Source: Somniosus microcephalus
Taxonomy: Eukaryota
Length of the DNA: 64,000 nucleotides
NCBI GenBank assembly: GCA_052327205.1
Contig: JBMRGM010000038.1
Coordinates: 35,650,001 to 35,714,000 of the forward strand
Reading direction: 5' to 3'
The first letter of the stretch is position 1. Each line of letters begins with the position of its first letter. The notes under the pieces were generated by a model. That model was not told the DNA's origin and made no database searches. It saw nothing but the letters and a program-made list of their open reading frames with translations. This document shows positions 7,475 through 36,408 of the stretch, piece by piece. A program made the translations under genes and the position numbers.

Positions 7475-7516
<42 letters not shown>

Positions 7517-8578
7517 GCGCTTGAGGCGGCGGGGTAGACACAGCCTCGATGAGCGCTCGTCAAGGTTGAAGATCAGCTACAAGCTGTTGAAGAACTGCAT
7601 GCAAATGGGAGAATTCTGAAGGTCTCTGGCCGGATGGTATGCCGAGGACCTTTCTCGCTCCCGCCTGGCTCGGTGGCTTTCCAGAGGGTTTCTTCTCCTT
7701 CGGCCTGGGTCGTCGATGATCTCCCGACCCCAGTACCCGGGCCACCCTTGTCATCTTCCCGTCGTCACCGAGCCTTGTCTGGCTGAACACCGACCACGTT
7801 GTCTTTTCACCGAAATTGTCCGTCCGAAGCGTCTTTAAAAAGACGAAGCGTCTTCATCGATTCCGAAACTACCGAGGTAGAAGAGGCGCCGATCTTGGAT
7901 CGGTGTAACCGTCACCGTCCGTCCTTCGTTCGTCCGTTCGTTCCGTCGATGACTCCGATCGTTCCCCGATTCACTCCGTAACTTTTGATGGACTTTCAAT
8001 CCATAGTTATACTCTTTTGGGACAGTCTTATCTCCCGCCAAATCATAGTCCTGTCTTTGTATTAATTTTGGCGGGCAGAAATCTCTGCAGGGGCGCTTTG
8101 TCTTGTAACGGGAGCCGGTGATAACTTAACTGGCCTTCCTGGCCGATAATGTCTTTTAATGTTTTTTACATTGTCATCGCGACTCGGTTCGCATATTGAC
8201 CGGTCCGGAGATTTTCCTTGATGGCTGTTAAACGGTTTCTCCTTTGTACAATAAATGGGTATGAGTGTTTTTGCATTGTCCGCCCATATCTTGATGGGCC
8301 CCATCCTGTACTTAGAATCCATTGAATATGTATGCTGTTTCCCTGAGTTTCGGTTCCCAGATACTGGCTTTCGCGGGCTTACTGTCTTCAATCCACAAGC
8401 CTGTCTGGCTTGCAGTAACAGAAATCAAACGGTCCAGAAAACTGATCACGAGGCCCGGCGGCCATTTTGTATGCCCTTTAATCAAAGGTTTTTCTGTGCA
8501 AGCTTACTTTGGTCAATAAACTGTCTTATTTTATCCTGTTTTCTTGCGTGATTATTGCTGAAAATTTCGAATCTTACA
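7005..8578 (-). repeat. 3' LTR of ERV copy 1 (1574 bp)
   Basis: Direct repeat of 17809-19369; termini TGTAAG...CCCCTACA on the minus strand; (CT)n at ~7478-7514; YY1-like AAAATGGCCGCC; AATAAAA near the U5 end. Confidence 0.95.
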
Positions 8579-8590
8579 GGCCCCCCTGTG
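8579..8590 (-). other. Polypurine tract (short: CACAGGGGGG-CC abutting the 3' LTR)
   Basis: G6 run 2 nt upstream of the LTR TG on the minus strand. Confidence 0.65.
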
Positions 8591-8966
8591 ATACTGATAG
8601 CTTGCTAGAGGTATCAATAATCCTTGGTGAGCAAATTTTCCCTGATTCCCCACGTCCAAACATTCCTGGCACTTAACTATCTATGACCCTCACGACACAT
8701 GCAGTTTCCATTTCCGAAAAAAACGAAAATTACCTTTTGCCCACTTGGACAATCATAGGCAGCATATCTTAAACTATAACACATTCATCTGTCAGATGTG
8801 CAGGGGTTGATACCTCCTTGCACCACCTGCATACACCTTTTATTAATCAAAAAACTTAAGAATGACTATTAACATAACAATATTCATATCCTTAAAACCA
8901 AAAACAAAACACGCAAATGACCAAAATCTAAAAATGGAGGGACGCTTAACCTTCAATACTAGCAGC

Positions 8967-10673
8967 TTAGAGTGGGGTGTCTTCTTCCCCCATTCGCACA
9001 TCGCGTTCTCTCCATTCTCCTGTGTTCTCGTGCCTCTGGAGGCGTTTGCCTCTTTTGCAATGCATGAAAAGCAAAAATATCACAATTAAAACCTGACACA
9101 CTACTAGGATGTGGGACGCTATTCTAATCCAGGCTGGGACCTCTATGTTAGTGAACAAGTCCCACCATGGTGGGATGGTTATGTCTAATATGTCTTTTCC
9201 TATCTCTAAAGTCTTCTGCTCCAGTGTGTAAAAATGTTTCTGTGAAACTATAACAGCTTTTAAAATCTTGGTGAGGTGTTCGGGAAGAGGGGGAATGACA
9301 TAACCAAAATGCGCGACGAATCGTTGCAAGTCTGTGAAATTCTCTTTGACAGTGAGGTGAACGGTGGAGGGTGCAGGAATGGGGACAATTCGTTGTTGTG
9401 CCACTTGAACCTCGGCCCTTGGTTTGAAACAGAAACTGCTATCACTGATCGAACACCACTCGTGTTGTCCGTAGCGGTAGTGAGGCGCTGCAGTGGTGAC
9501 GCAGTATGTCCCACCCCCGATATATGCTACCTGCGGGGGCACATGGTCCTCTGCCATTGCCTCCATGGTGCAATTTATCGGCTTCGCGCTAACGGTTCTG
9601 AACCTGCACTGTGGTTTCAAAAAGGCATTCAAGTGCTGGGGACACAAGATGATGTGTGCTCCCCGGCTCCGACATCTCGAGAGGTCGGTGCCTGTCATCG
9701 TACGCTCCCATCTGATGACGTAAGGCGGGACCACTGCGTAACGAATGTGTTCACCCCCCTGAATGACTCCAATGTTCTCCACCCTGTATACCGGGGCGGG
9801 CTTTGCTGCGGGACCCAACACCGGCATTCTTACCACTATTCCCATGATAGTATGATTCGAACGTCCGCAGTCCACTGGGACTGGGTACACTTCTGCAGCT
9901 AGTCTGAGCTGGCACGGGCTTAATGCATTCTCAAAAGGGTGGAGCGCTTGCAAGTGCTTGTTGCTGATCCAGGACGGGACCAAACCCTGTTTTAAATCCT
10001 CAAGATTACTGTGACCCTCGCCCAGTAACCACGCCCCGTATAGCACACAGGCCTCGTTTTGCGCAGCTTGATCGGACGCATTCCGATCCTCCTTAATGAG
10101 CGCATTTACTGTTCTCGCGTGTCTCTCCAGCTCAGCTATTATTTCCTTAAAGTGTAGTGTCATGGCCTGATCCTCATGTAACTCAGAACCCACTACCTTA
10201 TTTTCATCTGTCAGTATGTTCCTTAACTGGGCTTTTAAACCGTTGATCTGTGTCTGCAGCTCCACGTTATCTAGAGCGTTGACGACAGATGTCCCGGTAT
10301 TAAAAGCAGTGAATATGTCATTTACTGTACCCCTTCTTTGCCTCCCGACTCGATCCAAAACTTCTGGTGGTGTGGTGTATAATTTGTCTTTGTCGATGTC
10401 GGCAAAATCAAACTCGTAAAACTGTCTAAACATTCGGGTTAACAGGACCTGATATAATTGTTCCGTTTCTTTGGGACACCACTCCGGCAATCGTACCTCA
10501 GTGAGGTTTAAAATCACTGAGGCCACCGCGTAGTGTACCCCTTGGTACAGCACCTGACCGGTGGGTACCAATACTAAACCGTTCCCGGGTCCCTTGGTGG
10601 TGGTTGGGCACCCTTCTTTCTGGGCTAGTGCTCCGGAAGCGTGGGCAGGGGCTTGCGTGGGCGGGTGATGAGT
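8967..10673 (-). CDS. env: Env fusogen portion, class I paramyxovirus/pneumovirus-F-like
   Basis: Frame open from 10673 with no ATG/signal peptide at its start. RQRR furin site, fusion-peptide-like GTVNDIFTAFNTGTSVVNAL, heptad repeat, Cys-rich block, second heptad, TM (IASHILVVCQVLIVIFLLFMHC), short tail. Confidence 0.85.
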   Translation of the reverse strand, partial: THHPPTQAPAHASGALAQKEGCPTTTKGPGNGLVLVPTGQVLYQGVHYAVASVILNLTEVRLPEWCPKETEQLYQVLLTRMFRQFYEFDFADIDKDKLYTTPPEVLDRVGRQRRGTVNDIFTAFNTGTSVVNALDNVELQTQINGLKAQLRNILTDENKVVGSELHEDQAMTLHFKEIIAELERHARTVNALIKEDRNASDQAAQNEACVLYGAWLLGEGHSNLEDLKQGLVPSWISNKHLQALHPFENALSPCQLRLAAEVYPVPVDCGRSNHTIMGIVVRMPVLGPAAKPAPVYRVENIGVIQGGEHIRYAVVPPYVIRWERTMTGTDLSRCRSRGAHIILCPQHLNAFLKPQCRFRTVSAKPINCTMEAMAEDHVPPQVAYIGGGTYCVTTAAPHYRYGQHEWCSISDSSFCFKPRAEVQVAQQRIVPIPAPSTVHLTVKENFTDLQRFVAHFGYVIPPLPEHLTKILKAVIVSQKHFYTLEQKTLEIGKDILDITIPPWWDLFTNIEVPAWIRIASHILVVCQVLIVIFLLFMHCKRGKRLQRHENTGEWRERDVRMGEEDTPL

Positions 10674-11323
10674 TCAGTGGCGTTTACCGGAATAGGGGAG
10701 TATGGGGCTCCGCACGCTCGAGTGCTCACATCCCATCTCATCCCCTTTCCTTCATCCTGCCACTGCCTCTGGAAGAAGATGGATACGCCCTTGGGGCAAA
10801 CGTGTCTTGAACCCCACATACAGACATATATTCCTTCATCTGGTTCCCACCATTTGTCCCAACACACACGTAATTGTCCGTGAGTCCCCGTAATAGTCCG
10901 ATGGGTATTATTACCCAGTCGCTCCCACTCGACTGTAGAGTTCCTCATGTCTTTTCCCAGCTTTCGCAGCCACCACCATCGCCTTAGTGGTACGTTCCCA
11001 TTACACACCAGACAGATCCTCTTTCCCACGGTAACGCTGACTCTGGGTGCAAGGATCCTCACCCGAGGGCTCGTTAACGAAGTCTCTTGGTAGGCAAAAC
11101 CGAAATTGCTGGAGTATTCCGTAGAATTCGTTCCCAGCCAACCTGGCCATCTCCCCTGGTGGAAGTAGGTGGCGGTTTCCTCAGCCTCTCGCTCCCCTGT
11201 CCCATCCGTTGCGATGGGGGCCGTGTCCCCGGAACACCCGAAGATGATGACGTCCTTGGTGCGGCCTCGGTAGGCCCACCCGCACCCGATCGCCACGAAC
11301 ATGATGAGAATCTTTTTCATCAT
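10625..11323 (-). CDS. Signal peptide + immunoglobulin-like domain ORF; probable N-terminal part of env, separated by a -1 frameshift
   Basis: ATG 11323 (MMKKILIMFVAIGCGWA), 11 nt after a splice-acceptor-like TTTTATTGGTTACAG. Ig motifs VSVTVGKRICLVC / WWWLRK / GQLRV / DEGIYVC. Overlaps the F-like frame at 10673-10625. Confidence 0.7.
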   Translation of the reverse strand: MMKKILIMFVAIGCGWAYRGRTKDVIIFGCSGDTAPIATDGTGEREAEETATYFHQGRWPGWLGTNSTEYSSNFGFAYQETSLTSPRVRILAPRVSVTVGKRICLVCNGNVPLRRWWWLRKLGKDMRNSTVEWERLGNNTHRTITGTHGQLRVCWDKWWEPDEGIYVCMWGSRHVCPKGVSIFFQRQWQDEGKGMRWDVSTRACGAPYSPIPVNATELITRPRKPLPTLPEH

Positions 11324-11514
11324 ATCCCAGGTTTCTGTAACCAATAAAATGATGTAGCCGGGCTCCCAATAGGTGCTGGCCTAATTAAATGGACGCGCGG
11401 GTTCCTGGACCCCGCTCCTAAACAAGCACACGTACCGGGCAGACTACAAAATCGTACTCTTAACATATCTTAACACCGTATACTTTATATTCCTTAAACT
11501 ATCACCATAATTAC

Positions 11515-14500
11515 CTAACTTAACTTATGTACAGCGCCGCCCTCCGTGGGGCGGCCAACTGAATCCCTGTGAGGGCTGTCGCGCGCCACACCCTGCGGTG
11601 GGGCTGCACTGGCCTTCAGCTTTGATCCCCCGCAGCCTGTCGCTGTTGAACGGGAACCATGCCTTCCTGGGGCTGCTCTAAACTGAGGTTGGGAAAAATG
11701 GGGAGAATCTGGCCAAAACTTTCTGGGCTGGGGCGCTCGAGCCGACCTACGAGGGGCTGCTTTGTGTGGGGCTCCCGGGGCTGATGGACCGGGGGTCGGG
11801 ACTGTCACCGTCACAGCCTGTGGTTCCTCCACAGCTGCCGGCTCCAGCTCCCCTCCCTCAGGCTCCGCCCCCTGGGGTCGGGATTTGTGGCTTCCGACTC
11901 CACCTCACCTGTCCCTACAGGTAGTGAGTCTCCGCCCCCATTCCCTACCTCCCCCAAGCTTGAGTCGAGGGCGGGATCGTCGTCCTCTGACTCTTCCCCC
12001 TCCGTGATTGGGTCTAAGGGGAGGTCGAGCTGTTCGGGCTCTTCCTCGTCCGAATCCCAATCCAGAGGGGAGACCTCCCACTCCGATGGGGTGGCCCCTC
12101 CCTTCAAGCAGGCTACTGTTCCAGCCTGTGTGGTCTGTGACTCTGTTACAGGCTGAGGATCTTTGTTCTCAGACCTGGTCCCTTTTGTTGGCCCTTGTGC
12201 ACCCGGTTTAAACAGTTTACACTGGTTAATGTGAAACCATTTGGTACGTCGGGGCACCTTCACTGCATAAACCATGGGGCTGGCCTTGTCTACAATGCTG
12301 TAAGGTCCCATGTACAATGGTTCAAAACTCCCTACCCTGGCGTAGTTTTGGACCATGACCTGGTCTCCGACTACCCACTCTTGTTGCTTACGAGGTTCCA
12401 GTAACAGTCGGTTTCCCCGATGCTGTCTTCCCATGTTCCCAGCCGCCTGCCCATAAATCTGTTTCAGGCGCTCCAAAAGGGTTTGGACGAATTTGTCTCG
12501 TTTCACCTCTCGGAGCTGGCCCTCAGTGAGCACCGGGGCTAGTACATGGGTGGGTGTTCGCATGATCCTTCCAGTCATTAATTCGTGCGGGGAATACCCC
12601 GTACTTTTGGACTGGCTGGCTCGGATCCCCATGAGGACTAAAGGCAGGACCTCCGCCCATTTCTGGGGCGAGCCCATTGTCTCTTTCCTCAGCTTTTCCT
12701 TGAGGGTCCGATTCATGCGTTCAACAATCCCGGATGACTGGGGATTGTATGCTACGTGCCACTTCCCCTCAATGCCCAAGAGCATGAGGGCGTTCTGCAT
12801 TACTTGACCGGTGAACTGACTCCCTTGGTCGGACTCTACAAAACGGGGGAGTCCCCACCGTGAGAACACTTCCCGAATCAAGATCTTAGCAGTGCCCAGT
12901 GCCGTAGCTGTTCTGCACGGGAAGGCTTCTACCCATTTGGTGAACACATCTACCAGGACAAGGCAGTACTTATATCCTCCCTGGGCGGCGGGCAGGGGCC
13001 CTATGTAGTCGACCTGAATCGACTGCCATGCTCCCTCTACCCTCCTGATGTGCCCCATGGGCATCTTCCTTTTGTGGGGGTCTGGGTTGTTTGCAGCGCA
13101 CACAAGACAGCTTGTGCAGAAATCGCGGACATCGTCCCGAAGTCCCGGCCACCATCCCGCCTGCTCTACCCGCTGCCAGGTAACCTCAGGCCCGGGGTGT
13201 CCCGCCCCTGGACCCTCGTGGGCCAGTTGCAGGAATTCCCTCCGGTGCTGCTGCGGCACAACCCACTGCTCCCCTCGGAACAGCATGCCTTCTTTGACTG
13301 AGAGGGCTGCCGTACTGTACGGACCCTCTACCTGCTTGCCTTCTGTGATGGCTTTTAGGACTGTTTTTAGGGCGGGATCCAGGGTTTGGATGGTCTTTAG
13401 GTCTGGGGGCGGTGTCACCCCTGTGTTCCCTGGAATTCCCTCCCTGCCTTGGATCGCCGCCACGGGTCCGGGTTCATAGGGGTCCCAGAGAATGCCATTG
13501 CGGGCACCCTCCCTGGCTAGCGCATCCGCCTGCTGGTTGCCCTGACTGCGGGGTTCTGTGGTGGAATGAGCCTTCACCTTATGGATGAACACCTCCCCTT
13601 CCTCTCCCACAGCTGCCAGGATCTTTTCTAGCAAGGGCTTAACTGTTAAAGGCCGCCCGTCCGCGGAGGTATATCCGCGTCGGGACCAGATGGCGAGGTA
13701 CTCTGTACACGAATTGCATGTGAACATGCTGTCTGAGCAAATCGTGTATGGGGTTGGGAAAATCTCGGGGTGGGTAACCACGTACGCCACCGCGGACAGT
13801 TCAGCCTGCTGTGCGCTCATAGTGCTGGGGAGCTTAATTGCCAGGGCAATGTTTGCCGCAGGGTCATAAACTCCACACCCTGTGAGTCGTTCGCCAGCAG
13901 ATACTGTGCTAGAACCGTCTACGTAGATTTTGCGGCCTGTGGGGTGTATCCCGGCCCGTAAACCTATGTTGACCTCCCATACCCCTTCTACGGAACACCG
14001 ATGGGCTGTCCCGGGATATGCCATGTTGGCTGCGAGCCTTGGCGCGCAGAGGCCTTTAACTTTGAGATCCATCTGGGAAAGGAGGAGGGTCCAGCGCGCA
14101 ATCTGAGTGCTGCTTACGGTCCCATCCTTAATCCTTCCATCCAGAAGCATCTTTGTGGGGGTGTGATGGGTGAGGAGCGTGATGGGAGAGGTTCCTGTGA
14201 AGATCACTGATCTGTTCACAGCCCAATGCGTGGCCAGGAGATGCCGTTCGCAATTGGAGAAACTCCTCTCTACATCCGTGAGCACCCTGGAGGAATAAAC
14301 TACCGGTCTCAGCTTGCCGTGCCGCTCCTGGAGCAACACGGCGCTCAGGCTGTCCCCACTGGCGGCTACCTCAGAACTCCTCTCCCCCATCTATGGCCCC
14401 TAGGGCTGGCGCGGTCTGCAGATCTCTTTTCAACTTCTCGAATGCTGCCTGGCACCCCTCATCCCAAGACCACTCGACTCCCTTGTGTAAGAGTCGAAGT

Positions 14501-15873
14501 AGCGGGGCTGCTGTGGCAGCATAGTCCTCGATGAAATCTCTGCAGCACCCGGTCAAACCCAAAAAGGACCTTACACCCGTTACTGTGTTGGGAATCGGCA
14601 GATCTTGTATTGATTCCCTTCTGGCCTTATCTATGGCTCTTTCCCCAGCGCGGAGGGCCAGACCCAGGAATTTGACTTCCTGCTGGCCGATCTGGGCTTT
14701 CTTCGGGTTTACTTTGAAACCCTTCCTTTCTAACAGTTCCAACAGTTCGGCTAATAGTGGGCCGTGCTCCTCCCTTGTGTCCGTGAACAGGAGTAGGTCG
14801 TCCACATACTGTACTATCTGGTTGGGCTGGCTAAACTCTTTTAAACTCCCCGCCATGCATTGATGGAAAATGCTGGGGCTGTTGTGAAAACCCTGTGGCA
14901 AGCAGTTCCAAGTGTACTGTTGCCCTTTGAAAGTAAAGGCAAACTTGTACTGATCCTCCCGCCGCAGCGGAATGGACCAGAAACCGTTCGAGATGTCCAG
15001 CACCGTGAACGTGGTCGCCGATGCTGGAATACTCCCTATTAGGTCTGCAACTGCTGCTACCGTGGGCGCGCAGGCTGGGATGTTACTATTGAGGACTCTG
15101 TAGTCCACCGTGGCTCTCCACGAATTGTCCGGCTTCTTTACCGGCCATAATGGGGAGTTCACGTGAGTGGCTATTGTTCTCAATACGCCCTGCTGCACCA
15201 ATGAAGATATTGCGGTCTCCATGTCGGGTTCTGCCTCCTTGGGGAAGTTATACTGCTTTTGGGGTCGGATCATGGGGTCCCCGTCTACGCTGACTTCAAA
15301 CCCAGTGACTCTCCCACAGTCGTGCTTGTGGGTGGCAAACGCGGTCAGATTTTCCGACACACACGCCTGCAAGTTCGTTGGGACGTTCGCTACCATGAGC
15401 TCGAGATCGTAACCTCCTGACAGCTTCATGGTGCACAGGGCCCCCTTTTCTTCCTTCCCTGGGATTACGACTACCTTACCTAAACCGCTCTCGGCTCCCC
15501 AGAGACAGTGATTTCTCAGGTCCACGAGGATCCCGTGTTCCACCAAGAAATCAGCCCCGAGGATGCCTTTTCCACCCCCCTCACTCCACTTCAATAGGAT
15601 ACACGTCCATGTGGTGTGGAGTGCTCCCAGATGAATGGAGAGCGGGATGGAGTACGCGCCAGCCTGTTCTCTGCCTGTGAAACCCACTACTAAGTATGGA
15701 GCCTGGGCGGACAGAGGTGAGGCAAAAGGTTTATCTGTGTGGATCACGGTACACGAAGCTCCCGTATCCAACAGGTAACTACCCTTTTGTCTTTCCACCT
15801 CCATCTCCACCACAGGTCTTCTCCAGGCGTCATAGCGGAGCGGACACAGGTAGACGGGCTGCGCAGGCGTCAG
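11515..15873 (-). pseudogene. pol: pol of ERV copy 1 (PR-RT-tether-RNase H-IN), frameshifted
   Basis: LLDTGA; NSPLWPVKK; LPQGFHNSP; YVDD; YVDGSS..SAQQAEL..SDS; H-H-C-C; QVDYIGP/SDQGSQF/GIVERMN; GPY. A 5-nt deletion (TTCTG) at ~14372 relative to copy 2, and a probable second -1 shift near 11870. Confidence 0.9.
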
Positions 15874-17805
15874 TCATTTAGGTGTTTCGGTTGGGGTCTC
15901 GGGAGCGATAGGGCTGTTGGCGACCGCTACCTTCCCCTGCCAGGTCATCAGAGACCGCATAGTCTCCAAGACTGACTCGATCGTAGCGGGATCCACAACC
16001 GCACCACCCCCTGTTGTTGGGGCAGTGGCTACGGTTGGGTTCTGGACTGGTGCTGGGGCAGCGGTCTGGGCTTGGGCTTGGACTGGTGTTGGGACAACGA
16101 TCTGGCCGTGGGCTAGGACTTGGGCTTGGGCTCGGGCTTGGGCTGCGGCGAACGCTCTCTCTCTCTTATCCTTCCATGGATTTCTACAGTCCTTGCGCCA
16201 ATGACCCTCCTTCCCACACCCGTAACAACTGCTGTTGGCTTGGGGAGGGCGATTTCCCTCCTGATGCCATTCCTTTTTAGCAGAAGCTGCGGGCCTCACC
16301 TCATGCACCTTTCCTTTTACAACAGGCGTTTTCCTACCCTTGTTGTTCCTGTAACTGATCGTGAGCTGATCAAGTACTAGTTCCTCCGTGGAGCGGGCGT
16401 TAGTGGGGTCAAACCATGCTTTGGCCTGCTCCCTCACTATTGGCAAGCAACCTGCTACCAGGCACCGAAGCCAATGAGCCCTTTGTTCATCATTTAGCGC
16501 GTTCCGTTCCGGTCCTCCCGGGCAGCTGCGCCGATACACGGGCCACAACCTTCCGGCGAAAACCCGTGGGGGTTCTCCCTCTAGCTGCACTGTCTTTTCT
16601 AAACAGAGGAACGGAGTTCCGTCACCCTCTCCTATAATCTCCAGGATCTCGTCCCGTAACAACTCATAGTCCCTGTGCCCTCTCTTGCTCTCGTCAGGGA
16701 GACACTGGAGGAGCGAGCTGTCCAGGGAGAACAGCAGCATTTTAGACTGTTCAACCCCGTCGCAGTCATTGACTGCTGCGGTCTGCTCCACGTCCCTGAA
16801 ATGCACGGAGGGATCTCCTGACTCGGAGAGTTTTGGGATGTGACTTATCATTGCCCTCAGCTGTTGTGCGCTGTGGGGCATTATGATCTGATTCACAAGG
16901 GGTCCATCATCGCCATTGTCTTCATTCGGACCGAGCCTCCGGTGTCTAGTTGGACACACCGGCGCCGGTCCCGACTCTACTATCTGGTGTTGCTCTACCT
17001 CAAGAATCTCTTCATCTACCGTCTCCGTCTCCTTCCCCGGAGTCCAAGACTCATCATAAGCAGGAGGCGCAGAGGGTTCGGGGGTTGGTTCCCGAACTAT
17101 CTCTTGTGGAATCGGTCTTTTGGATTCCTTGGCTAGCAATAGCTGGCTCGCTGGTGGATTTATGAGACACACCAACCCGTTTGCCTTGGCTAGGGCCATT
17201 CTCAGGTCCTCTTGCTCCCGACGGCAAGTGCTGTGGTCGGTGCTCTCAGATCTATCCTCCATGGCCATCTTATATGCTGCCCTGGCTCCCAGAAGTTTTT
17301 CCTCTTGGGTCTCTATTTGCTTAGCTAGACGGAAACACCTGTCTCTCATTCTACCTTCACTGGCCTTGGCCTCAATGACCTGACATTTTAAATACTCTAC
17401 CCGGGTTTCGTGGCAGCGAGTTGTGGAGTGGCGTTCCTGATTCAGCGCGTTAAGCGATTCAATCAGTTTCTGACCTCCCGCAACCTTTTCCTCTACGTCT
17501 GTAAGCAACCCTTTGATCTGGGCTGTTTGTGCTGCAACGACTTGGTCCAAAAGCTGGACTTGCTTCTTGTAGCACATCAGCCAGACCGCCTTTTCTACAG
17601 ATTTCTTATGCTCTTTACCCTTTGTCCACTTGATGGCTGCGTCTAGCGGGCGCCTATCCCTTAATAGGTCCGATATCCATTGTTTTGTGAGGTTGACTTT
17701 TCCAAAAACATAATCTGCTATTCTTTCATCCATCACATTTCGTTTATTCAGACCTTGATCTAACACACTACTTTCCTGCTGCCAAGGTCCTGCCGCGGTC
17801 GCCAT
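15874..17805 (-). CDS. gag: Gag (643 aa), intact
   Basis: Coiled-coil N-half, overlapping late domains PSAPPAY, capsid-like region, single zinc knuckle CYGCGKEGHWRKDC. Ends in TGA in frame with pol. Confidence 0.9.
   Translation of the reverse strand: MATAAGPWQQESSVLDQGLNKRNVMDERIADYVFGKVNLTKQWISDLLRDRRPLDAAIKWTKGKEHKKSVEKAVWLMCYKKQVQLLDQVVAAQTAQIKGLLTDVEEKVAGGQKLIESLNALNQERHSTTRCHETRVEYLKCQVIEAKASEGRMRDRCFRLAKQIETQEEKLLGARAAYKMAMEDRSESTDHSTCRREQEDLRMALAKANGLVCLINPPASQLLLAKESKRPIPQEIVREPTPEPSAPPAYDESWTPGKETETVDEEILEVEQHQIVESGPAPVCPTRHRRLGPNEDNGDDGPLVNQIIMPHSAQQLRAMISHIPKLSESGDPSVHFRDVEQTAAVNDCDGVEQSKMLLFSLDSSLLQCLPDESKRGHRDYELLRDEILEIIGEGDGTPFLCLEKTVQLEGEPPRVFAGRLWPVYRRSCPGGPERNALNDEQRAHWLRCLVAGCLPIVREQAKAWFDPTNARSTEELVLDQLTISYRNNKGRKTPVVKGKVHEVRPAASAKKEWHQEGNRPPQANSSCYGCGKEGHWRKDCRNPWKDKRERAFAAAQARAQAQVLAHGQIVVPTPVQAQAQTAAPAPVQNPTVATAPTTGGGAVVDPATIESVLETMRSLMTWQGKVAVANSPIAPETPTETPK
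17787..17804 (-). other. Primer-binding site, tRNA-Arg(UCG)
   Basis: TGGCGACCGCGGCAGGAC, 4 nt from the LTR, is complementary to ...GTCCTGCCGCGGTCG-CCA, the vertebrate tRNA-Arg-TCG 3' end as recalled. Confidence 0.8.
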
Positions 17806-17808
17806 TTC

Positions 17809-19369
17809 TGTAGGGGGTTTCTCTTGCTCGTTCTGGTCTCCTGCCAGGCGTTGTGCAATAATTACCCTTGAGTGGTTTGACCCACTCCCCCTATGGTTCT
17901 AGACCTTGGACTTAGATGCAGAGAACTGTAGTGCAGAGAAAGGACTCAATAGACCAGGTTGAATAGCACGAAATGGATGCTTTTATTTTAAACAGTTTGA
18001 AGCATTACAAAATACATGTCATAGGCACAGATTAAAGTAACTACAATCATGCACAAATTTATGAACTTGACTCTATGGAAATGGGGAACACACGGCACAT
18101 CGAAAAAGGGAAAACACATTACGATTACCCTTAACTCCCTCCCCTATACCTAAACTAAGTTTTGACCTGAGGAACTTGGGATCATGCTCACCACTCTCAA
18201 AATCGCGAAAAAGGGGGTTCGCAGCCTTTTGGCACCGCTTTCCGTCGTCACGTGGATTTGGAAACTTCTGGCGCAGTCGATATTCTCTCTCTCTCTCTCT
18301 CTCGAGGCGGCGGGGTAGACACAGCCTCGATGAGCGCTCGTCAAGGTTGAAGATACCTAAGTCTGTTGTCGATTTTTGTTCATGGAGCAGAACAACAACC
18401 CAATGGGATGTTGAGATACGGAAGTGTCAGGCCCGGAATGTCCTTTCTCTCTGGCCTGGATCGTCGGTTTTCCTGAGGGTGTCTTCTCCTTCGGCCTGGG
18501 TCATCGATGATCTCCCGACCCCAGTACCCGGGCCACCCTCGTCGTCTTCTCGTCGTGGCCGAGCCTTGTCTGGCTGAACACCGACCACGTTGTCTTTTCA
18601 CCGAAATTGTCCGTCCGAAGCGTCTTTAAAAAGACGAAGCGTCTTCATCGATTCCGAAGCTACCGAGGTAGAAGAGGCGCCGATCCTGGATCGGTGTAAC
18701 CGTCACCGTCCGTCCTTCATTCGTCCGCTCGTTCCGTCGATGACTCCAATCGTTCTCCGATTCACTCCGTAACTTTTGATGGACTTTCAATCCATAGTTA
18801 TACTCTTTTGGGACAGTCTTATCTCCCGCCAAATCATAGTCCTGTCTTTGTATTAATTTTGGCGGGCAGAAATCTCCGCAGGGGCGCTTTGTCTTGTAAC
18901 GGGAGCCGGTGATAACTTAACTGGCCTTCCTGGCCGATAATGTCTTTTAATGTCTTTTACATTGTCATCGCGACTCGGTTCGCATATTGATCGGTCCGGA
19001 GATTTTCCTTGATGGCTGTTAAACGGTTTCTCCTTTGTACAATAAATGGGTATGAGTGTTTTTGCATTGTCCGCCCATATCTTGATGGGCCCCATCCTGT
19101 ACTTAGAATCCATTGAATATGTATGCTGTTTCCCTGAGTTTCGGTTTCCCGATACTGGCTTTCGCGGGCTTACTGTCTTCAATCCACAAGCCTGTCTGGC
19201 TTGCAGTAACAGAAATCAAACGGTCCAGAAAACTGATCACGAGGCCCGGCGGCCATTTTGTATGCCCTTTTATCAAAGGTTTTTCTGTGCAAGCTTACTT
19301 TGGTCAATAAACTGTCTTATTTTATCCTGTTTTCTTGCGTGATTATTGCTGAAAATTTCGAATCTTACA
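17809..19369 (-). repeat. 5' LTR of ERV copy 1 (1561 bp)
   Basis: Highly similar to 7005-8578 except a non-homologous ~115-nt block (~18355-18470) and (CT)n length. Confidence 0.95.
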
Positions 19370-20620
19370 CAAGCAAACCCTGCGCAACAACTTGTGATTA
19401 ATAAAGTGGTGAAATTAGCAAATCTGTAATGGTTATTGCTTGCATTTGGTCATTGATCAAGGCTGGGGATTTGCATTCTGAATACAGGAAGTTTTCCATA
19501 TTTATTTACTTCCATTAATGATTCTTGACCCAGTGGCATGCCTACTGAGTGTATTTAATCTTTTCACCAGATATCAGGCTACTGGGGTATGTGCCCCATT
19601 TCACTAGTTTATTAACAGCAACTTGGAAGTGTTTGCCTGGAGCGAGTTATCTTGGCCTGCTGTTTGTCCCTTGTTAAGGAGGTTTGTGGGGCTCTTGTGG
19701 AGTGAGGTTAGTGGGACTGATTATTGAGCCCCATGAAATTGCAACGTTCTGGAAATTTTAATGCTGGGATTAGTTTATTACTAGAAGTGGAGGTTCTTTA
19801 GTCCTCTATAACTGACTGGGATAATAAGTCTACATGGGGTAGATATCCATATTCTAAAAATGATAGCGGCACTAGCGAGGGTGCAAAAAACATTTACTAG
19901 GATGATTCCAGAACTGAGATTATTCTTATTAGGAAAGATTGACCTGTTTGGGATGCCTTCTTTAGGAAAGAGAAGGCTGAGGGTGTTTAAAATTATGACT
20001 GGGTTCGATGGGTTAGATATCGAGATGTTTCCACTTGGGGGCAAGACCAGAACTAGGGGCCTGTAACTACAAGGTAGTAACTAACTAATGACTCCAATGG
20101 TGAATTCAGGAGAAACTTCTTTACCCAGAGAGTGGTGAGAATGTGGATCTCGCTATCACGGAGTGGTTGAGGCGAATGGTGTAGCTGCATTTAAGGGGGA
20201 GCTCTAAGCATGAGGGAGGAAGGATATGCTGTTTGGGTGAGATGAAGGGTGGGAGGAGGCTCGTGTGGAGCATGGACTAGTTGGACTGAATAGCCTGTTT
20301 CTGTGCTGTCGATGGCTTGTTAACCTGCAGGATTAGTCACCTGAGGAACTGCATCTCTGAAGGCCCCTTCAATGGCTTTCGGTGTTGGCCGTGGCTCAGT
20401 GGACAGCGCTCTAGCCTGAGTCGGAAGGTCGTAGGTTCAAATCCCACTATAGAAACCTTGAGTACAAAAGCCAGGCTGACACTCCCAGTGCTGCACTGTC
20501 GGAGGTGCCATCTTTCGGATGAGAAGTTAAACCGAGGCCACTTCTGGCCCCTCGGGTGGATGTAAAAGATCCTGTGGCACTTTTGGAAGAAGAGCAGGGG
20601 AGTTCTTCCCTCTGACCAAT
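19370..20620 (+). repeat. Orphan 3' end of another ZP3 unit (last codons, polyA signal, downstream flank); paralogous to 5757-7004
   Basis: Starts CAAGCAAACCCTGCGCAACAACTTGTGATTAATAAA and aligns with 5757-7004 with scattered substitutions and indels. Confidence 0.9.
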
Positions 20621-20750: not shown

Positions 20751-22856
20751 CATTTTTTAATTTGTTCATGGAGTGTGGGTGTCACTGGCAAGGCCTGCAT
20801 TTATTGCCCATCCCTAGTTAGCCTTGAGAATGTGGTGGTGAGCTGCCTTCTAGTCCAGTTGGTCAGTGTGCTGTTGGAGAGTTCCAGGATTTTGACCCAG
20901 TGACGATGAAGGATCGACGATATACTTGCAAGTCGGGATGGTGTGTGACTTGGAGGTGGTGGTGTTCCCATATGCCTGCTGCCCTTGTCCTTCTAGGTGG
21001 TAGAGGTCGCGGGTTTGGGAGGTGCTGCCGAAGAAGCCTTGGCGAGATGCTGCAGTGCGCCAGTGCTGGAGGGAGTGAATGTTTAAGGTGTTGGTGTGAC
21101 ATCCTGAATCTGGGTATGGCGCTGTATAAATAAGATTGTTCTTTCTAAACATCTGACGTGAGTTTGGGACCTACAATAAAATATAATTATCCCTAACCAA
21201 CATACTAGGTCCCCAATAGGGATTCAGTTGCCGTACTGGATCTCCAACAGCAGGTGGGGATAGAATCCATATCAACTTAACGAGCACAGTTTTGTATCTC
21301 TTGTGGCTGACCCTGGTCAGTGAATGCTGGCTGAAATCTGCAGTAGAACTGTTGTCAATACTTAACCACTTACATTTATGTAGCCCCTTCAACGTACTGA
21401 AATGTCCCAAGGTGCTTCACAGAAGCCCTATTGAATAAAATTTGACACCAAGCCACATACGGAGATATTAGGGCAGATGACCAAAAGCTTGTGCAAGAGG
21501 TAGGTTTTAAGGAGGAGGGAGTGCTGGAGAGGTTTAGGGAGGGAATTCCAGAGTTTGGGGCCCAGGCAGCTGAAGGCAAGGCTGCCAATGGTGGAGCGAT
21601 TACATAGAAACATAGAAGATAGGAGTAGGCCGCTTGAGCCTGCTCTGCCATTCAATGCGATCATGGCTGATCATCCAAATTCAGTACCCGATCCCTGCTA
21701 TCTCCCCATAACCCCTTGATCCCTTTAGCCTTAAGAAATGTATCCAACTCCTTCTTGAATATATCTAATGAATTGGCCTCTGCTGCCTTCTGTGGTAGAG
21801 AACTCCACAGGTTCACCACGCTGTGGGTGAAGAAATTCCTCCTTCAGCGACTGGTGCACAAGGTCACCCAGGTCTCGTTGCACTTCCCCTTCTCCCAATC
21901 TATTGCCATTCAGATAATCTGCCTTCCTGGTTTTGCCACCAAGTGGATAACCTCACATTTATCCACGTTATATTGCTTCTGCCCAATCACCCAACCTGTA
22001 AATCATCCTGTAGTTTCTCGGCATCCTCCTCACAGCACACACGCCCACCCAGCTTTGTGTCGTCTGCAAATTTAGAGATATTGCATCAATTCCCTTGTCT
22101 AGATCATTAATATATATATTGTGAATAGCTGGGGTCCAAGGACCGATCCCTGCGGTACCCCACTAGTCACTGCCTTCCACTCAGAAAAAGACCCGTTTAT
22201 TCCAACTCTTTGCTTTCTATCTGCCAACCAGTTCTCTATCCAAGTCAGTACCTTGCCCCCAATCCCATGTGCCCTAACTTTACATACAAATCTCTTATGT
22301 GGGACCTTAATCGAAAGCCTTCTGAAAGTCCAAATACACCACATCCACTGTGTTAAGTATGTGTATTGTATTGAACAATTAACACAAAGACTTAAACGTA
22401 TAACTCAAACAAGTCTTTACTGGTTGGAGGTAGGGACTATACTGAATACAAGATTACTGCACAGTGCTTATATACCGATGTGTTCACCCCCGGTATTACG
22501 TCTACAGCAGCCTGAGAAAGTAGTACATCTCTTAAGGTGGAACAGGCTTAAGCTCTCTTAAGGTGGAACAGGTTACATACACAACACTCCTCCCTTCTTA
22601 GCTTTATAGTCATCCCCCCATTTAACATAACGTAATAACATATATACATATATAACTTCATGTTTAACGTAACATATCACAGATTCAGTCTCTGCGGAAA
22701 ACAGTTCACAGATTCAATCTCTGTGGTGTAGTCGGTTCACGTTACTCATTCAATAGTCCTTTCATGGATTTAACAGCTTGAACTTCCGAACTGATTTGGC
22801 TCCGTTCGGAGGGACCACGTGTGTGATCTGGTAGAGGTGATAATGGTTCAGATGGG

Positions 22857-25172
22857 TCATCTTCTGTTTTTACTTTTCCTTTTCTGCTTCTTGGAGACTC
22901 TCTGGGCTCCATTGTCAGCTGCCACAGCTGCCAGCTGCATGCGCAGTTCCTCCTTCTCTTCCTCCTGTTTCCGTCGTAGAGCCAGCTTCTCCCGATGTTC
23001 CGTAGACTTTTGGTGCTCCTCCATGATTTCTGCACTTTGGGAGTCGAAGTTACAAGCTGGGCAGGACAGGGCATCGTAATATTCGGTGTCGTCCACCAGG
23101 TCATGGTAATATTCGGTGTCGTCCTGAACTAGACCAGTGAGAGGGTCGTCTATTTCCTCCATACCCAGCTGGACGTTAGCCAGCTCTTGTTCCAAATCCA
23201 GACATCTTTCCTGAAGAGACTTCTTCATGTGTACCTCTGCATCCAGCTTTTTCTGGGCTTTCAGCAAATCGTTTACTAGTGACCTCATTTGTGATTTTAA
23301 TACTTCAACTTCCTTTGGAGATTGATTGATCGGACTATGCAATCCCTCTACCCGAGCGGCTGTTTCAGCGGTCTGTTGTTCTACATTGACGTGAGTCAGC
23401 GTACTTTTGGCATCCAATGGCTGCTCTGTTGCAGTCGTTTCAGTCTGTGTCGTCACATCAGCCATCTCAATGACTTTTGAGAGCTCCGAACCCTTTTCCT
23501 TTGAAGATCGCAGCTCGTGTTCAAGTTTTTCCCATTTCAGAGTCTTGTCCCTCAGCATATGAAGGAGTTGGCTGACCGTTAACTCTTCTGACACCAGATT
23601 ATGGCACGCACCTTCAGAACCTGAATCAGCTTTGATTCATTCGGCCTCCTCGCGCAGATGGTTGGTGTGCTCCTGCTCCATTTTCTCCATCAGTTGCTTC
23701 TGTTGCCTTTCCAGATTCTCCCACTCTGTAACAAAGAACTTTTTTATTTCATTCATCTCTTGCTCAAAACGGCGAATCATTTGTTCTAATTGCTGTTGTA
23801 GTTTGAAATGGAGTTGAGTTCGAGCCCAGTGTCCCTCAAAAATGTGCATATCAGTAGACTTGACAGACTCAGAATTCTCTGTTAAACTATGTTGTTGTTG
23901 CTCAGTGGAATTCTGTGCTGAAACTTTGTCTTTTGCACATGGGTTGGTCTTACCATCATCAGTTCTAGAGTCTGGGCTGATTATCTGCACCGAGTTCTCA
24001 CTCTTTATGGCTTTTAGTGAATGCCAGTCCATATTTATGTTTCTAAACCACTCCCGGCCTAGTAGTGGTGGACCTCCCTCCGGTAGCACATATAAGTCCA
24101 TTATTTGACTTCCTTCGCCCTTGTTGGCCACTGCAACCTTTATTGTCCCGATGGGGTACACTCTCTGCCCCGTGTAGGTTGTCAATATAATCTCCGTATC
24201 CTGTAGGGGAATATGTTGGAATAACCTTCTGTAATCTTTCTTATTCATGACCGACAATGCCGATCCAGTGTCCAATTCCATTTTTACTTGGACTCCTTCT
24301 ATCTGAAGAGTAACCCAAATTGTCTGGAGGTCTGCACCCTTACCAACGTTGAGTACCCTTAAGCTAGCCAGTTCAATACTGCTTAAGCCAGCCAGTTCAT
24401 TACTGCTAGCGTCTGAATCGGACTCCTGTTCGGCCACCTTGTGTACCTTTGCGTATTTCCCTTGCGGTGACTTCTTGTTGCTGGTCTTCTTCCCTGACCT
24501 GCATACTCTAGCTATGTGTCCAAGCTTACCACATGTTCTGCATTCTTGGTTTTTAAACCAACACTGGTTCTGATCATGCGTTGTCTTTCCACAACGATAA
24601 CATTTAACAGAACTCACACCCAATTTGTGTGCACTGAGCTCCGGTGACCGTAGCTGCATTACTGCCGTGCCTCTCGCTGCGGCTTCGTGTGCTGCTGCCA
24701 TAGTGACCGCCTTCTCAAGCGTCAGCTCATTCTCCTCGAGCAGTCGCTTTTGTGTATCCTGTTTAAATAAACCACACACAAATTTGTCTCGTAGTGCATC
24801 TGTCAGTCCCATTCCAAACTGGCACTATTTCGCTAATTTACGCAATTCCAGCAAATATTCAGCATTGCTTTCATGCTGTAGCTGCCTTCTGTCGTAAAAT
24901 TTAAATCGTTCCGCTAGCATCAGCGGCGTGGGGTTTAGATGATCTTTCAGGACAGTAACAATCTCATCGAACGTCTTACCCGCCGGTTCATCTGGTGATA
25001 ACAGGTGTTTCAATTGCCCGTATGTCTTCGCACCCATTAAATTTAATAATGTTAGAGCTTTATCTTGGTCACGAATTTTATTGGCCTTACAATAATTTTT
25101 TACTCTTTCAACATATATGGCCCAATCTTCGAGGTCACTATCAAAGGTGCTAATATTCCCGTGTTTAGGCAT
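22857..25172 (-). pseudogene. Gag-protease fused in frame to STK10/SLK-, optineurin- and DNAJC21-like segments (771 codons, two in-frame stops)
   Basis: ORFs 24825-25172, 23637-24812 and 22857-23594 share one frame (TAG 24825-27, TGA 23637-39). Mag-type Gag ([24 protein letters not shown]), two CCHC knuckles, ELDTGS..LLGREW protease, then coiled coils and a C-x2-C-x12-H-x5-H finger. Confidence 0.8.
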
Positions 25173-25309
25173 TGTAGATTTGCAATTTCTCAGATTTTAT
25201 TTTCTTTACTTGTTATCAAAGATGGCGGCTTCCCGCTCTTGCCGTCGTCCTCCGCCCACAAAATGGCGGTTTTCCCGCGCTTGGCGGTCTTCATCCGTCC
25301 CCCGACGCC

Positions 25310-25660
25310 GTCTCCCTTCAGCCCCCGAGTGCGGCCCTTATCTTCGCCGCGATCGCCCGAGTGCGGCCCTTATCAGCGGATGCAATCGATGGCCCGGCTG
25401 CGCCTCGCACTTGAAAGCGGCCCGGCCCTTATCAGTGCTTGCGATCGATGGCCCGGCTGCGCCTCGCACTCCAAAGCCCTTATCTCCCGATCGCGATCAA
25501 TGGCCCGCGCTGTGCACCGCGGCTCTCGCGCCTTCAATTTCTGCAGCCGCTGCCCTTTCAGCACGAGTGCGGCCCTTATCGGTGGTTGCGATCGATGGCC
25601 CGGCTGCGCCCCTCACTTCAAAGCGGCCCGGCCCTTATCTGCCTATCGCTATCGCCCTGT
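25310..25660. repeat. GC-rich ~59-bp imperfect tandem repeats in the Gypsy 5' leader
   Basis: Recurrent GGCCCTTATC...GCGATCGATGGCCCGGCTGCGCC units. Confidence 0.8.
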
Positions 25661-27244
25661 ACCTGTCTTCCCCAGCCCTATCTTCTACTCCGGTTCACAA
25701 GCTGATGGAGGCTTCAGGGTCCTAATGCCTGTTGCTTCCATTGGGGTGGTGAGAGGTGAGGTTTGAAACCTCTCTTCAACCGCCGTGGAATAACTGCCGC
25801 AGGGTAAGAACCTGACTCATCGCCAGTGTTAAGTATGTGTATTGTATTGAACAATTAACACAAAGACTTAAACGTATAACTCAAACAGGTCTTTACTGGT
25901 TGGAGGTAGGGACTATACTGAATACAAGATTACTGCACAGTGCTTATATACCGATGCGTTCACCGCCGGTATTACGTCTACAGCAGCCTGAGAAAGTAGT
26001 ACATCTCTTAAGGTGGAACAGGCTTAAGCTCTCTTAAGGTGGAACAGGTTACATACACAACACACTGGTTCTCCCTTATCTATTTTACTAGTGACATCCT
26101 CAAAAAATTCCAGTAGATTAGTCGAGCACGATTTACCTTTTGTAAATCCATGTTGACTTTGTCCGATCCTGTCTCTGTTTTCCAAGTGCTCTGCTATTAC
26201 ATCTTTTATAATGGACTCTAGCACTTTCCCCACTACCGATGTCAGGCTCACCGAGACCTGTAATTCCCCGTTTTCTCTCTACCACCTTTTTTGAATAGTG
26301 GGGTAACATTAGCTACCCTTCAATCCATGGGTACTGTTCCAGAGTCCATCGAATGTTGGAAGATGATCAGCAATGCATCTACTATTTCTAGGGCCACTTC
26401 CTTAATTACGTTAGGATGTAGATTATCAGGCCCTGGGGATTTATCGGCCTTCAATCCCATCAATTTCCCTAACACCATTTCCCTACAAATACTGATTTCT
26501 TTCAGTTCCTCCCTTTCATCGGACACTATGTTCCCCGACATTTCTGGGAGGTTATTTGTGTCCCCCTTTGTGAAGACAGAACCAAAATATGTATTTAATT
26601 GGTCTGCTATTTCTTTGTTCCCCATTATAAATTCCCCAGTTGGGGATGCTCAAGAGGCCAAAATTGAAGGAGCGCAGAGCTTGCGGAGGGTTGTGGGGCT
26701 GGAGGAGGTTGGAGGGATTTCAAAACAACGATGAGAATTTTAAAAATCAAGGCGTTGCTTAACCGGGAATCAATGTAGTTCAGCGATGGGTGAATGGGAC
26801 TTGGTGTGAGTTAGGATACGGGCAGCTGAGTTTTGGACGGCCTCAAGTAAATGGCGGGTAGTGCGTGGAAGGTCAGCATTGGAATAGTCGAGACTACAGG
26901 CGAATAGAGATGTGGCAGTCAGTCTCACCTGGGTTTAGTGAGTGTCTACACAAAGCCTCATACACAACATACAAAAAGTTGATGTGCATTCACACTGAAG
27001 TCTTCCAATAAATATGTATAATCACAGAAGTGCTTGTTTGAGTAAACCAGTTAACATTTTATACACAGCCAGCACACCTCGCCTCACCCCCTAAACAGCT
27101 GCCATCAAAGCCCAGTTGCTGTATTATTTTGTGGGTCTGTGCTCGGGTTAGCAGCCCTCCAGGATTGTCCCAGAGTCTCCAGGAATTAAAAGATTCATCT
27201 CTGGGAGCCTGGCACGTCCTGAGTTCATGATAGGTGCGGTATTC

Positions 27245-33382: not shown

Positions 33383-33520
33383 CCAATCAAAAGGGTCACT
33401 CCGATTGGTTGAATTAAAATAGGCCCTCCTGGCAATAAATCCATGAGTTCTGTGATTGGGTAGAAATTGTGGAGCTTGGGGTTAATCGGCTCAATGTGAC
33501 TGCAGGTTGTGTGTATAAAA
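33383..33520 (+). promoter_or_regulatory. ZP3 copy B promoter (CCAAT boxes, TATAAAA 33514-33520)
   Basis: CCAAT 33383, ATTGG 33404 and 33455, TATA about 50 nt before the ATG. Confidence 0.65.
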
Positions 33521-33564
33521 GGTGCTTGTTGATGGGTGCAGGGATAGTTGAGTTGTTTAGTATC

Positions 33565-36408
33565 ATGGGGGATTTTGTAGTGAGGGGTTTGCTCCCAGTG
33601 CTGGTGTTAGTTGGAGCTGTTTGTTCCTCTGATATTTGGCAACAGTTTGGGGGCCAGAGGTTTCCATGGAGAAGAGTAAAAGCCACCCCTGGGCCTCAGC
33701 GAGTCCCTTCTCCTGGGTCTCCCTTTGGCTCCGGTTTCAGTGTGTCTGAGGGGCGCAGTGTGTCTCCACTGCAGACTGTGAGGGTGCAGTGTGGAGAGCA
33801 CAACCTGCTGGTCAGGGTACAGATGGATTTATTTGGAACCAGGCACCTGATTAAAGCTGCTGACCTGACCCTGGGGACGGCAGGTTGTCCGTCAACTGGG
33901 ATCTACTCTCAGAACCACACTGTCCTCTTTGACTATGGGCTGCATGAGTGTGGCAGCAGAGTGAAGGTAATGTGATTCCTCAACTCTTGCTCTAAGCTTG
34001 GTGTCTGGAATAGACCCAACTTGTTTTTCCTACCCTGATTCCTGTCTCCTGCTTTTAAAACCTCCAGACTTGTGTTGAATTATGTATTGTCCTTTGCTTT
34101 AACTGGTTTTCCTGAGTGTCTCCAACTTTGATCTCGGCCTTATTGGCCTTGATCCTTCACTTAGTTCTTAACTTTTCCTTCCTTACATCCTGTCTTGTGG
34201 ATTTTCAGGTCACTGGGGGTTTAGTTATCTACAATATTGAGTTTTTTTTCTTCCACTCCTTTGTATCAGAATACAGGGGAGTCTGGCTTAAATGAGGCTT
34301 TAATCTTGTTCTATTCATTGCTCTAAATTATCAACCTGTGGCTCCTTTTATTGAAGTGAAGCTGTCCTTTCATTGAATCTTTATTCTGTTTAATTGTCTT
34401 GTGCTTGCAATCCCCCTCCTTGCTTTAGCTGCTGAGGCTGCACAACTTCCAACCACCTGAGTAGAATGTTGTCCATTTCTGAACCTGATGTCTTTCAGAT
34501 GTCTGGAGATTTCCTGGTCTACGCCACCCACCTGAACCACACCCCCAAGGCCCATGGATCTGTCATTGTGAGAACTAATGGAGCTGTCGTTCCCATTGAG
34601 TGCCACTATTTTAGGTAAGATTCTTTACACTGTCGCAAATAACGTCTACAGCTGGTGTAGTTCTCTGACCTTGTCCTAAAATGGCTCCGTTGTCTTTCCA
34701 GGAAGGGCAATGTGAGCAGTAACCCGATCAAGCCCACCTGGATCCCGTTCAGCTCCACCAAGTCTGCAGAGGGGCTTCTGTCATTCTCTCTGCGCCTAAT
34801 GAACGGTATGTGATGGGTGGATGTGGAATGATTTCCTGTAGTCACCCATTGGCAGTTGTACCCAGTCTCCAACCCTTGTCCCTCTTGTACTTCAGATGAC
34901 TGGCTCACAGAGCGCACCTCGACTGTCTACTACCTGGGTGACCTCATTCACATTGAGGCCTCTGTTTCAATGACCAACCACATGCCCCTGAAGCTCTACA
35001 TTGATCGCTGTGTCGCTACGTTGAGCCCAGACGAGGACTCCGCCCCGAGATACAGCATCATTGACTACAATGGGTAAGGAGCACTCTGCTTTCTCCAGCT
35101 GATCCTGTCTCAATGGCTTCGCTTGATTCACTCCATGTCCCTTTCTTAAAATTATTTCTTCAGTTGCCTCCTGGACAGCAAAGCTGAGGACTCCTTCTCA
35201 ACCTTCGTGTTGCCAAGAGACGAGCGTGAGCTGGACAAGCTCCACTTTGACTTGGATGCCTTCCGCTTCTTTGGCGATGATCGTTCCTTGGTAAGAGGAA
35301 GCCGACCGCTGCAAAGTATTTACAGCCAATCTGCATAACTGGGTTGTGCTCCACATGAGTGTCCTCCCACTCCTCTTCATCTAACTCTTCAACATATCCT
35401 TCTATTCCTTTCTCCCACCTGTGTTTATCTAGCTTCCCCTTAAATGAATCTACACTATTCGCCTCAACCACTCCCTGTGGTAGCGAGTTCCACATTCTCC
35501 CCACTCTCTGGGTAAAGAAGTTTCTCCTGAAATCCCTCTGCTGTATATCCTGTGATCCTATGAATCACTAACATTAACCACTTTTCTCTGTTTCTAGCCA
35601 GCTTGCTATCCATTCTGCTACTTGTCCCCTGAATCCACCTGTTCATTGAGTTCCCAAGTTGGGAGGGAGTCACTATATAATGACTTGTGTTGACTGTGTC
35701 CCTCAGATTTTCATCTCCTGTCACCTGAAGGTTGCTGCAGTGGATCGGAGAGATTCCATGAGCAAAGCTTGTACTTTCCAGAAGATGCAGAATGTGTAAG
35801 TGCCCCCTCTCCCTCAGGGATGTGTTGTGTGGGGAAGTGATGCCCAACCTGATTGTGAAACTGATTCTCTTGTTTAGCTGGGCTCCATTGGAAGTATCCA
35901 ACAATGACGTTTGTGCCTGTTGTCACTTGGGCAACTGCAGTGCCACAAGGGAGTTTGGATTTGATTCCAGAGGAAGGAGGGATCTTGTACCTGAAGCTGG
36001 TAGGACATTGATTCTCTAGATGTTGGAGGTTGCCCTTTACCCTCTCTAACTGGAATGTTTGATATTGCAGGGAGTGATGCTGAATTGAAGTGGGAGGGTG
36101 AGGCCTCCCTTGGACCCCTGGTCATTCTGGACACTGATGTGACAGACCTGGCAACCGAGTCCCTTAATGAGGTTGAGCAACGGATGGCGGAGAGGTCTCC
36201 AGGTGGTGAGTTGGCCGACTGCTAGTTTCCATTTCCCCCTCAGTATTCCCTTCACTCACTGTTGGTTTCTCATTGCTGTTTAGGTGCGGAGTCTGAGGTG
36301 GTCCTGATGGTGGCCCTGACTGTGACTGCTGTCTCTCTGATCTCTGCTTCGTTGATCGCCTTGTTCCTGTACAGGAAACGCAAGCAAACCCTGCGCAACA
36401 ACTTGTGA
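33565..36408 (+). CDS. zp3: ZP3 copy B, 9 exons, 465 aa, intact
   Basis: Exons 33565-33966, 34499-34614, 34702-34805, 34896-35073, 35164-35290, 35707-35795, 35878-35999, 36071-36205, 36284-36408; same lengths and phases as copy A. Confidence 0.95.

Follow-up and report, generated by a model that had tools for sequence, protein, structure and literature searches.

A C2H2 zinc finger that protein comparisons securely trace to the host protein DNAJC21 is the final module in a mosaic ORF (Gag-protease-cargo), assembled from several genes, of a high-copy LTR retrotransposon of Somniosus microcephalus. We analyzed a 64,000-nucleotide stretch of this genome, hereafter the window, in which the element and its parts lie on the minus strand. 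Most of the host-derived cargo evolves near the neutral rate yet keeps its frame, and the finger ligands stand apart: among 134 independent insertions, no inherited amino-acid change was found at the four ligands, compared with 29 at the other 19 finger sites. On balance, we favor the interpretation that the finger would serve as a zinc-stabilised folded module which, with a basic tail, is kept by selection on the element and not as a copy of the host function.

The element spans 22351-26062 (3712 bp) and is bounded by two 236-bp LTRs: the 5′ LTR (25827-26062), with TG...CA ends, is identical to the 3′ LTR (22351-22586) at 233 of the 236 positions. A TGGCG-type primer-binding site (PBS) lies one base after the LTR (25809-25826), a polypurine tract (PPT) occupies 22587-22602, and the whole is flanked by a target-site duplication (TSD) of CACTG (22346-22350, second copy 26063-26067) within a remnant of a CR1-type LINE reverse transcriptase. 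A 5-bp TSD was also found in sister copies, and RNA reads from CR1 sites without the insertion leave out exactly 3717 bases. The LTRs, PBS, PPT and TSD, together with the relatedness of the gag-CCHC-protease part to a complete gypsy element described below (L084), identify the element as a non-autonomous derivative of Ty3/gypsy; from its PBS and gag features, it may belong to the Mag clade of gypsy. It is not an autonomous gypsy element, because its own reverse transcriptase (RT), RNase H and integrase are absent: none of the three was detected in the window element or in the family ORFs that we read, and the RT in one copy (L102) belongs to a LINE joined to a truncated family copy.

In place of RT, RNase H and integrase, the single ORF carries host pieces, captured as mRNA in the case of optineurin and probably also in those of STK10 and DNAJC21, the order in frame being gag, two CCHC knuckles, protease, spacer, PKK coil, optineurin coil and DNAJC21 piece. 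The gag part occupies 24501-25172 (knuckles at 24501-24602) and the aspartyl protease 24024-24326, with its DTG at 24261-24275 (Pfam gag-asp_proteas, E 2e-5). The captured PKK coiled coil of the STK10/SLK family lies at 23640-23831 (Pfam PKK, E 3e-10), and an adjoining piece in a sister copy fits STK10 slightly better than SLK. The captured optineurin coiled coil (23151-23634), which is spliced, has an internal deletion and shows 69% identity to shark optineurin, joins six host exon pieces (from C17) from which the introns are missing, the feature that marks LTR-mediated mRNA capture. The DNA identity of five of these exon pieces to the host is 96-99% in copy L103 and 76-94% in the window. The window copy has two in-frame stops, one in gag (24825-24827) and one adjoining the PKK coil (23637-23639); among its 20 closest relatives, 13 read through the whole stretch examined, down to the tail, without a stop.

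Elsewhere in the window, a retrovirus-like element (7005-19371, minus strand) encodes gag with CCHC, protease, RT, two RNase H domains and integrase; its long terminal repeats are ~1.4 kb, and a related inverted copy extends from about 57004 to 64000 on the plus strand. Two of its ORFs (8967-10673 and 10625-11380) had no Pfam match, and its double RNase H presumably resembles that of lokiretroviruses. A ZP-N (zona pellucida) exon is present three times, at about 2859, 33439-33975 and about 46646, in copies that are 99% identical and belong to a tandem array of ~13-kb units, one of which is expanded and contains both LTR elements.

The finger itself (22995-23063) has the ligand pattern C-x2-C-x12-H-x5-H. 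A six-frame scan of the window finds one such pattern, compared with 0.03 per shuffled window (30 shuffles), and a chance motif was rejected as the explanation of the finger. The peptide quoted in the initial annotation is present as claimed, on the minus strand, and the frame-preserving 30-nt tandem duplication described there is real (23064-23123; the repeat match covers 23067-23124, with period 30 and 92% match); it lies before the finger, its repeated unit is the acidic DDTEYY itself, and it is missing from some sister copies. Behind the finger come a DNAJC21-derived helix (22944-22994) and a basic tail (22857-22904), which comprises QRVSKKQKR and a few element-derived residues (22860-22904) and ends at a stop codon (22857-22859). 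An untranslated remnant of an acidic and integrase-type tail follows (22742-22856), which is in frame in other lineages.

Both the similarity to DNAJC21 and the capture by a mobile element, as proposed in the annotation, were borne out. In a pairwise comparison, the window ORF and white-shark DNAJC21 were identical at 23 of 42 residues (55%, E 9e-11), and QRVSKKQKR is present letter for letter in the white-shark protein; a similar tail motif lies at most 140 a.a. from the finger in 62 of 120 DNAJC21 orthologues. When the cargo of a sister copy was used as the query, there were 18 matches: 17 optineurins and white-shark DNAJC21 (E 7e-3). Against Pfam zf-C2H2_jaz (PF12171), a profile suggested in the annotation, the window finger scored 14.1 bits and fell below the curated cut-off of 22.6 bits, whereas the less diverged, near-host fingers of sister copies scored 30-36 bits. 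The DNAJC21 origin is secure from these comparisons, because the near-host-identical sister fingers, found at 29 of the 30 loci from the PF12171 search, bridge the gap to the window finger.

Other routes were less informative about the finger: the finger region alone gave no homologue among 216 longer-protein candidates and only generic finger clusters below 0.9 in the ESM Atlas, a PDB sequence search with the 259-aa ORF gave no match, and PF21884 led to DNAJC2 and not to DNAJC21. Exons 1-4 of host DNAJC21 were located on C1 of the genome; the finger exon was not found within 400 kb around them, a region with assembly gaps. The LTRs, the TSD, the fusion to gag and the thousands of copies rule out that the piece is a paralogue or a processed pseudogene of the host gene. 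With the first zinc finger of DNAJC21/Jjj1 (PF12171; zf-met, PF12874), the element piece shares the ligand spacing, the acidic and helical flanks and the QRVSKKQKR tail. Unlike DNAJC21, it has no J domain, ZHD or second finger and is not a working DNAJC21, and the lysine patch and core Phe of the first finger are gone in the window lineage.

The family is large. A 16-mer from the tail region had 5,550 exact matches in the genome (control, 1), a motif before the finger had 11,918 (control, 22), and a variant of the pre-finger motif had 1,861 further matches. Since the 11,918 matches include paired duplicated units, which account for 15 pairs among the first 100 matches listed, we estimate that there are ~10,000 finger-carrying copies. 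Activity was recent, because the LTR pairs across family copies are mostly 98-100% identical. The tail anchor was used to pick 90 copies; a finger is present in 70 of these and absent from 20, and the finger-less copies carry STK10 alone or STK10 and Ig domains. One lineage, of 195 copies, carries two different fingers in tandem, and both are intact in 8 of the 9 copies read. The nested structures of the cargo suggest that STK10 was gained first and DNAJC21 second (as in L091), with optineurin or another coil following.

A complete related gypsy element (L084) has RT, RNase H and integrase in that order, and its gag-protease is 59-65% identical to that of the family. Its C-terminal tail, PTTPP...RRYPDRVRK, resembles the old integrase-type tail of the family. 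L084 is a candidate for the helper, although its LTRs gave no match, and for the source type of the old C-terminus. A second helper candidate is a complete related gypsy element that contains a family copy (L098), its gag-protease having 72% DNA identity to L161. Two RNA runs, chosen by species label, contained family reads in every bin, which are not assignable to the window copy. In run X6, first mates were ~8-40 times more frequent on the plus strand over most ORF bins, which means RNA of the coding strand, assuming a usual stranded library; the strands were nearly even in X7. Three contig sets of unrecorded kind, with three organism codes, covered the whole element.

The cargo pieces across the family are mostly coils or tandem domains. 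The STK10 cargo of L161, L140 and L091 is permuted, the C-terminal PKK coil being followed by a segment that ends the kinase domain, an order that a circular RNA would give. The finger-less L132, L160 and L188 carry two or three titin/obscurin-type Ig I-set domains in the same slot, presumably donated by obscurin. L137 and L188 have an insert with a QVDG-x-DD motif directly after the protease, which we take to resemble the taspase cleavage region of KMT2A; the post-protease spacer in all lineages may be a remnant of this insert. A myosin-tail-like coiled coil (Pfam E 1e-14), presumably cingulin-like, is the cargo of L090 and L023-L032, and an ESM Atlas search with the L090 cargo found unrelated coiled coils only. 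L228 has another coiled coil upstream of optineurin, which we assume to be ANKRD24-like. At about 66.8-68.8 Mb on C1, the insertions L173/L176, L174/L177 and L248/L249 share flanks, ~1.2 Mb apart, and these identical-flank pairs are a large segmental duplication or an assembly duplication.

We evaluated selection by counting a change in at least two copies as inherited and by using single-copy (private) changes as the neutral baseline, with a dN/dS of 0.66. The ligands were tested on copies picked by motifs outside the finger, blind to the ligands, in three sets (70, 29 of 30 and 39 of 40); for the third, 40 copies were fetched from 49 further places, and L264 was unplaced. L223 was left out, as were all PF12171-picked copies, the latter because they had been selected for intact fingers, and dropping four segmental duplicates gave the 134 independent insertions. 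The counts are minimum states per column and are not tree-based; the lineages recombine. While none of the inherited changes in this sample hit a ligand, 5 of the 21 rare (post-insertion) changes did (binomial P 0.0024, Fisher 0.0096; Fisher 0.045 without one misframed copy). With the per-site rate of optineurin as the null (107 copies, in which 111 of 162 columns had changed), the ligand P was ~0.01; with a cargo-wide null, in the first sample alone, it was 0.05. An inherited Cys-to-Tyr ligand change in L248/L249 was rejected, since the two are one insertion duplicated with its flanks. The ligands are thus more conserved among copies than the neighboring residues, in agreement with the initial annotation, and because they stay constant as the other finger positions vary, the captured piece is likely a folded module and not filler.

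Inherited dN/dS in 90 copies was 0.17 in the capsid-like part of gag, 0.06 in the knuckles and 0.29 in the protease (p < 1e-5 versus the baseline), and it lay at the baseline level in STK10 (0.54), optineurin (0.53) and the whole finger (0.88). In 60 copies, 23 of the 30 inherited indels up to the finger were in frame, compared with 13 of 36 private indels and 8 of 21 inherited indels after the finger. Regarding the end of the ORF, 116 of the 134 insertions have the DNAJC21-frame tail and 9 have an Arg-rich integrase-type tail, the frame in these 9 continuing past the DNAJC21 tail, which is the NLS-like tail of the annotation; the C-terminus is basic, with at least six K/R in the last 12 residues, in 126 of 134. 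The baseline-level value of the whole finger, the spread of the finger-less copies and the loss of the core Phe count against the folded module.

Pairwise dN/dS between lineages was calculated with one copy per lineage, and the 15 of 28 pairs that were computable are not independent. In three pairs of later lineages, dN/dS was 0.23-0.33 in the finger versus 0.58-0.69 in optineurin (dN difference, p 1e-4 to 0.017). Between the near-host and window lineages, dN/dS was 1.6 in the finger and 0.5 in optineurin, with equal dS. Between the window lineage and lineage III, the finger is far more distant (dS 0.38) than the adjoining optineurin (dS 0.06), and the fingers were therefore swapped as modules. 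A more far-reaching proposal, which we advance tentatively, is that the pol-less element built a new functional C-terminal domain from a host chaperone finger, which would have been captured, re-surfaced, then brought under purifying selection, swapped and duplicated. The re-surfacing would correspond to a rapid run of amino-acid changes, at a dN/dS of about 1.6, leading to the window lineage, and the advantage might be a Gag polyprotein better at hijacking helper particles or entering the nucleus.

The captured pieces could instead be neutral filler: selection would act on the open frame alone, through RNA length or stability, and the few master lineages would have kept the ligands by chance. 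A cargo dN/dS at the private baseline, a frame held up to the finger and relaxed beyond it, and the thriving of finger-less lineages (20 of 90) are what such filler would give; in addition, 2 of the 5 optineurin Cys/His columns are also free of inherited change, and Pro1 and Ser19 of the finger are likewise invariant. However, the absence of ligands among the 29 inherited changes yielded P of 0.002-0.05 under three nulls, Cys/His sites elsewhere in the cargo changed at 9 of 14 positions in the first sample, the low dN of the later lineages is specific to the finger, and the two-finger lineage was amplified. We consider filler unlikely on this evidence.

The finger surface bears on what the module may bind. 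The window type has 1 K/R and 5 D/E, compared with 6-8 K/R in 120 host orthologues; K5, N15, K20 and K21, which are invariant in 120 of 120 orthologues, are replaced in the window finger, as is the Phe/Leu core position 7. A fold model with 34 orthologues aligned predicted a beta-beta-alpha fold (pLDDT 88) and leans on those orthologues, and a single-sequence model of the window finger was all helix, with no finger. Foldseek with the finger model returned no match under E 0.001, the nearest folds being the U1-C, SF3A and TUT1 fingers, all weak (E 0.9-3). Human DNAJC21 is described, in the cited passage, as a J-protein of 60S maturation with two C2H2 fingers (PMC6710477).

By analogy with U1-C/matrin-type fingers, which bind RNA, the finger and basic tail might bind nucleic acid, for RNA packaging or as a chromatin tether. 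The weak resemblance to those folds would agree with this, as would the basic tail (126 of 134) and the helix that has become basic again in some lineages (4-5 K/R). Against it, the two finger types sampled most often contain 1-2 K/R and 5 D/E, the host-invariant lysines are gone, the element has its own strongly conserved CCHC knuckles, and the fingers of the yeast orthologue Jjj1, in its C-terminal region, are reported in the cited passage to bind a protein, Rei1 (PMC2854368). We regard this role as improbable for the family; for the window-copy finger, nucleic-acid binding is unlikely, because the charge is lost, host-invariant residues are replaced and the yeast fingers are reported to bind protein, with the tail and the more basic lineages leaving room for it. 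The earlier claim of selection for a nucleic-acid-binding finger thus divides: selection on the ligands stands, at P about 0.002-0.05 depending on the null, and nucleic-acid binding does not fit the window lineage (1 basic, 5 acidic). Least credible of all is a decoy or hook for the host partner of DNAJC21 (ZNF622/Rei1, pre-60S ribosomes) that would favor translation of element RNA: the contact of Jjj1 with Rei1 through its C-terminal finger region (PMC2854368, same passage) and the nearly host-identical early lineages would suit it, but most host-invariant surface residues are changed in the most abundant lineages, and near-host fingers make up just 11 of 70 in the first finger-carrying sample.

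We therefore return to the interpretation favored above, in which selection on the element keeps a folded module, stabilised by zinc, together with a basic tail; beyond the observed origin, position, copy number, frame retention and ligand conservation of the finger, the working of such a module can be outlined as follows. The DNAJC21 piece may have entered by template switching onto a host mRNA within the particle of a helper element. The element's own polyprotein would act in cis, as the purifying selection on gag, knuckles and protease suggests, and would co-assemble with a helper supplying RT and integrase. The coils would serve mainly as a spacer that has to remain open in frame. The finger and basic end may have taken the place of the lost integrase C-terminus, where they could aid stability or folding, nuclear entry or the binding of a protein partner. 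Since the surface was remodelled from basic to acidic in the window lineage, such a partner is probably not that of the host finger.

LTR-mediated capture is already known. In the cited passages on LTR-mediated retrocopies of metazoans (Tan et al. 2016, PMC5131818), internal ORFs are likewise partly replaced by host mRNA between intact LTRs, in sense and often in frame, with template switching at microsimilarity, and multi-gene chimeras are foreseen; those retrocopies are single- or few-copy, whereas the shark chimera has ~10,000 copies in many lineages, selected gag and protease, and residue-level selection on a captured domain. The maize element Bs1 (PMC13317346, PMC7264820) also combines pieces of three host genes in the chimeric ORF of one LTR element, but it is a plant element, and the cited passages give no high copy number, intermediate-lineage series or site-level test. 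The crocodilian ERVs with KIT-ligand or nectin3 (PMC4299795) carry captured host mRNA under purifying selection in a vertebrate LTR element, in one case in place of a viral gene. According to the passages available, however, they have whole domains in separate ORFs and 6-9 copies, while the shark element is a pol-less gypsy in which Gag-protease is fused to a finger of 23 residues whose surface was remodelled. Searches of titles and abstract beginnings on shark and elasmobranch LTR elements and on DNAJC21 in retrotransposons, in literature outside Repbase and subscription journals, returned nothing on this family. The new point is the site-specific selection on a captured mini-domain in a high-copy parasite.

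It is customary to regard host fragments in LTR elements either as passengers or as raw material that the host can use. Most of the cargo in the shark element does drift, yet a single module of 23 residues shows signs of selection at precisely its metal ligands. The ~10,000 recent copies are natural replicates with which to ask whether a non-autonomous element can profit from captured protein domains, and a comparison set is ready in lineages with no finger, with one finger of several surface types and with two fingers. If the element did build a new domain from the host finger, this would be domain invention arising purely from competition among parasites, with its stages still present in one genome.
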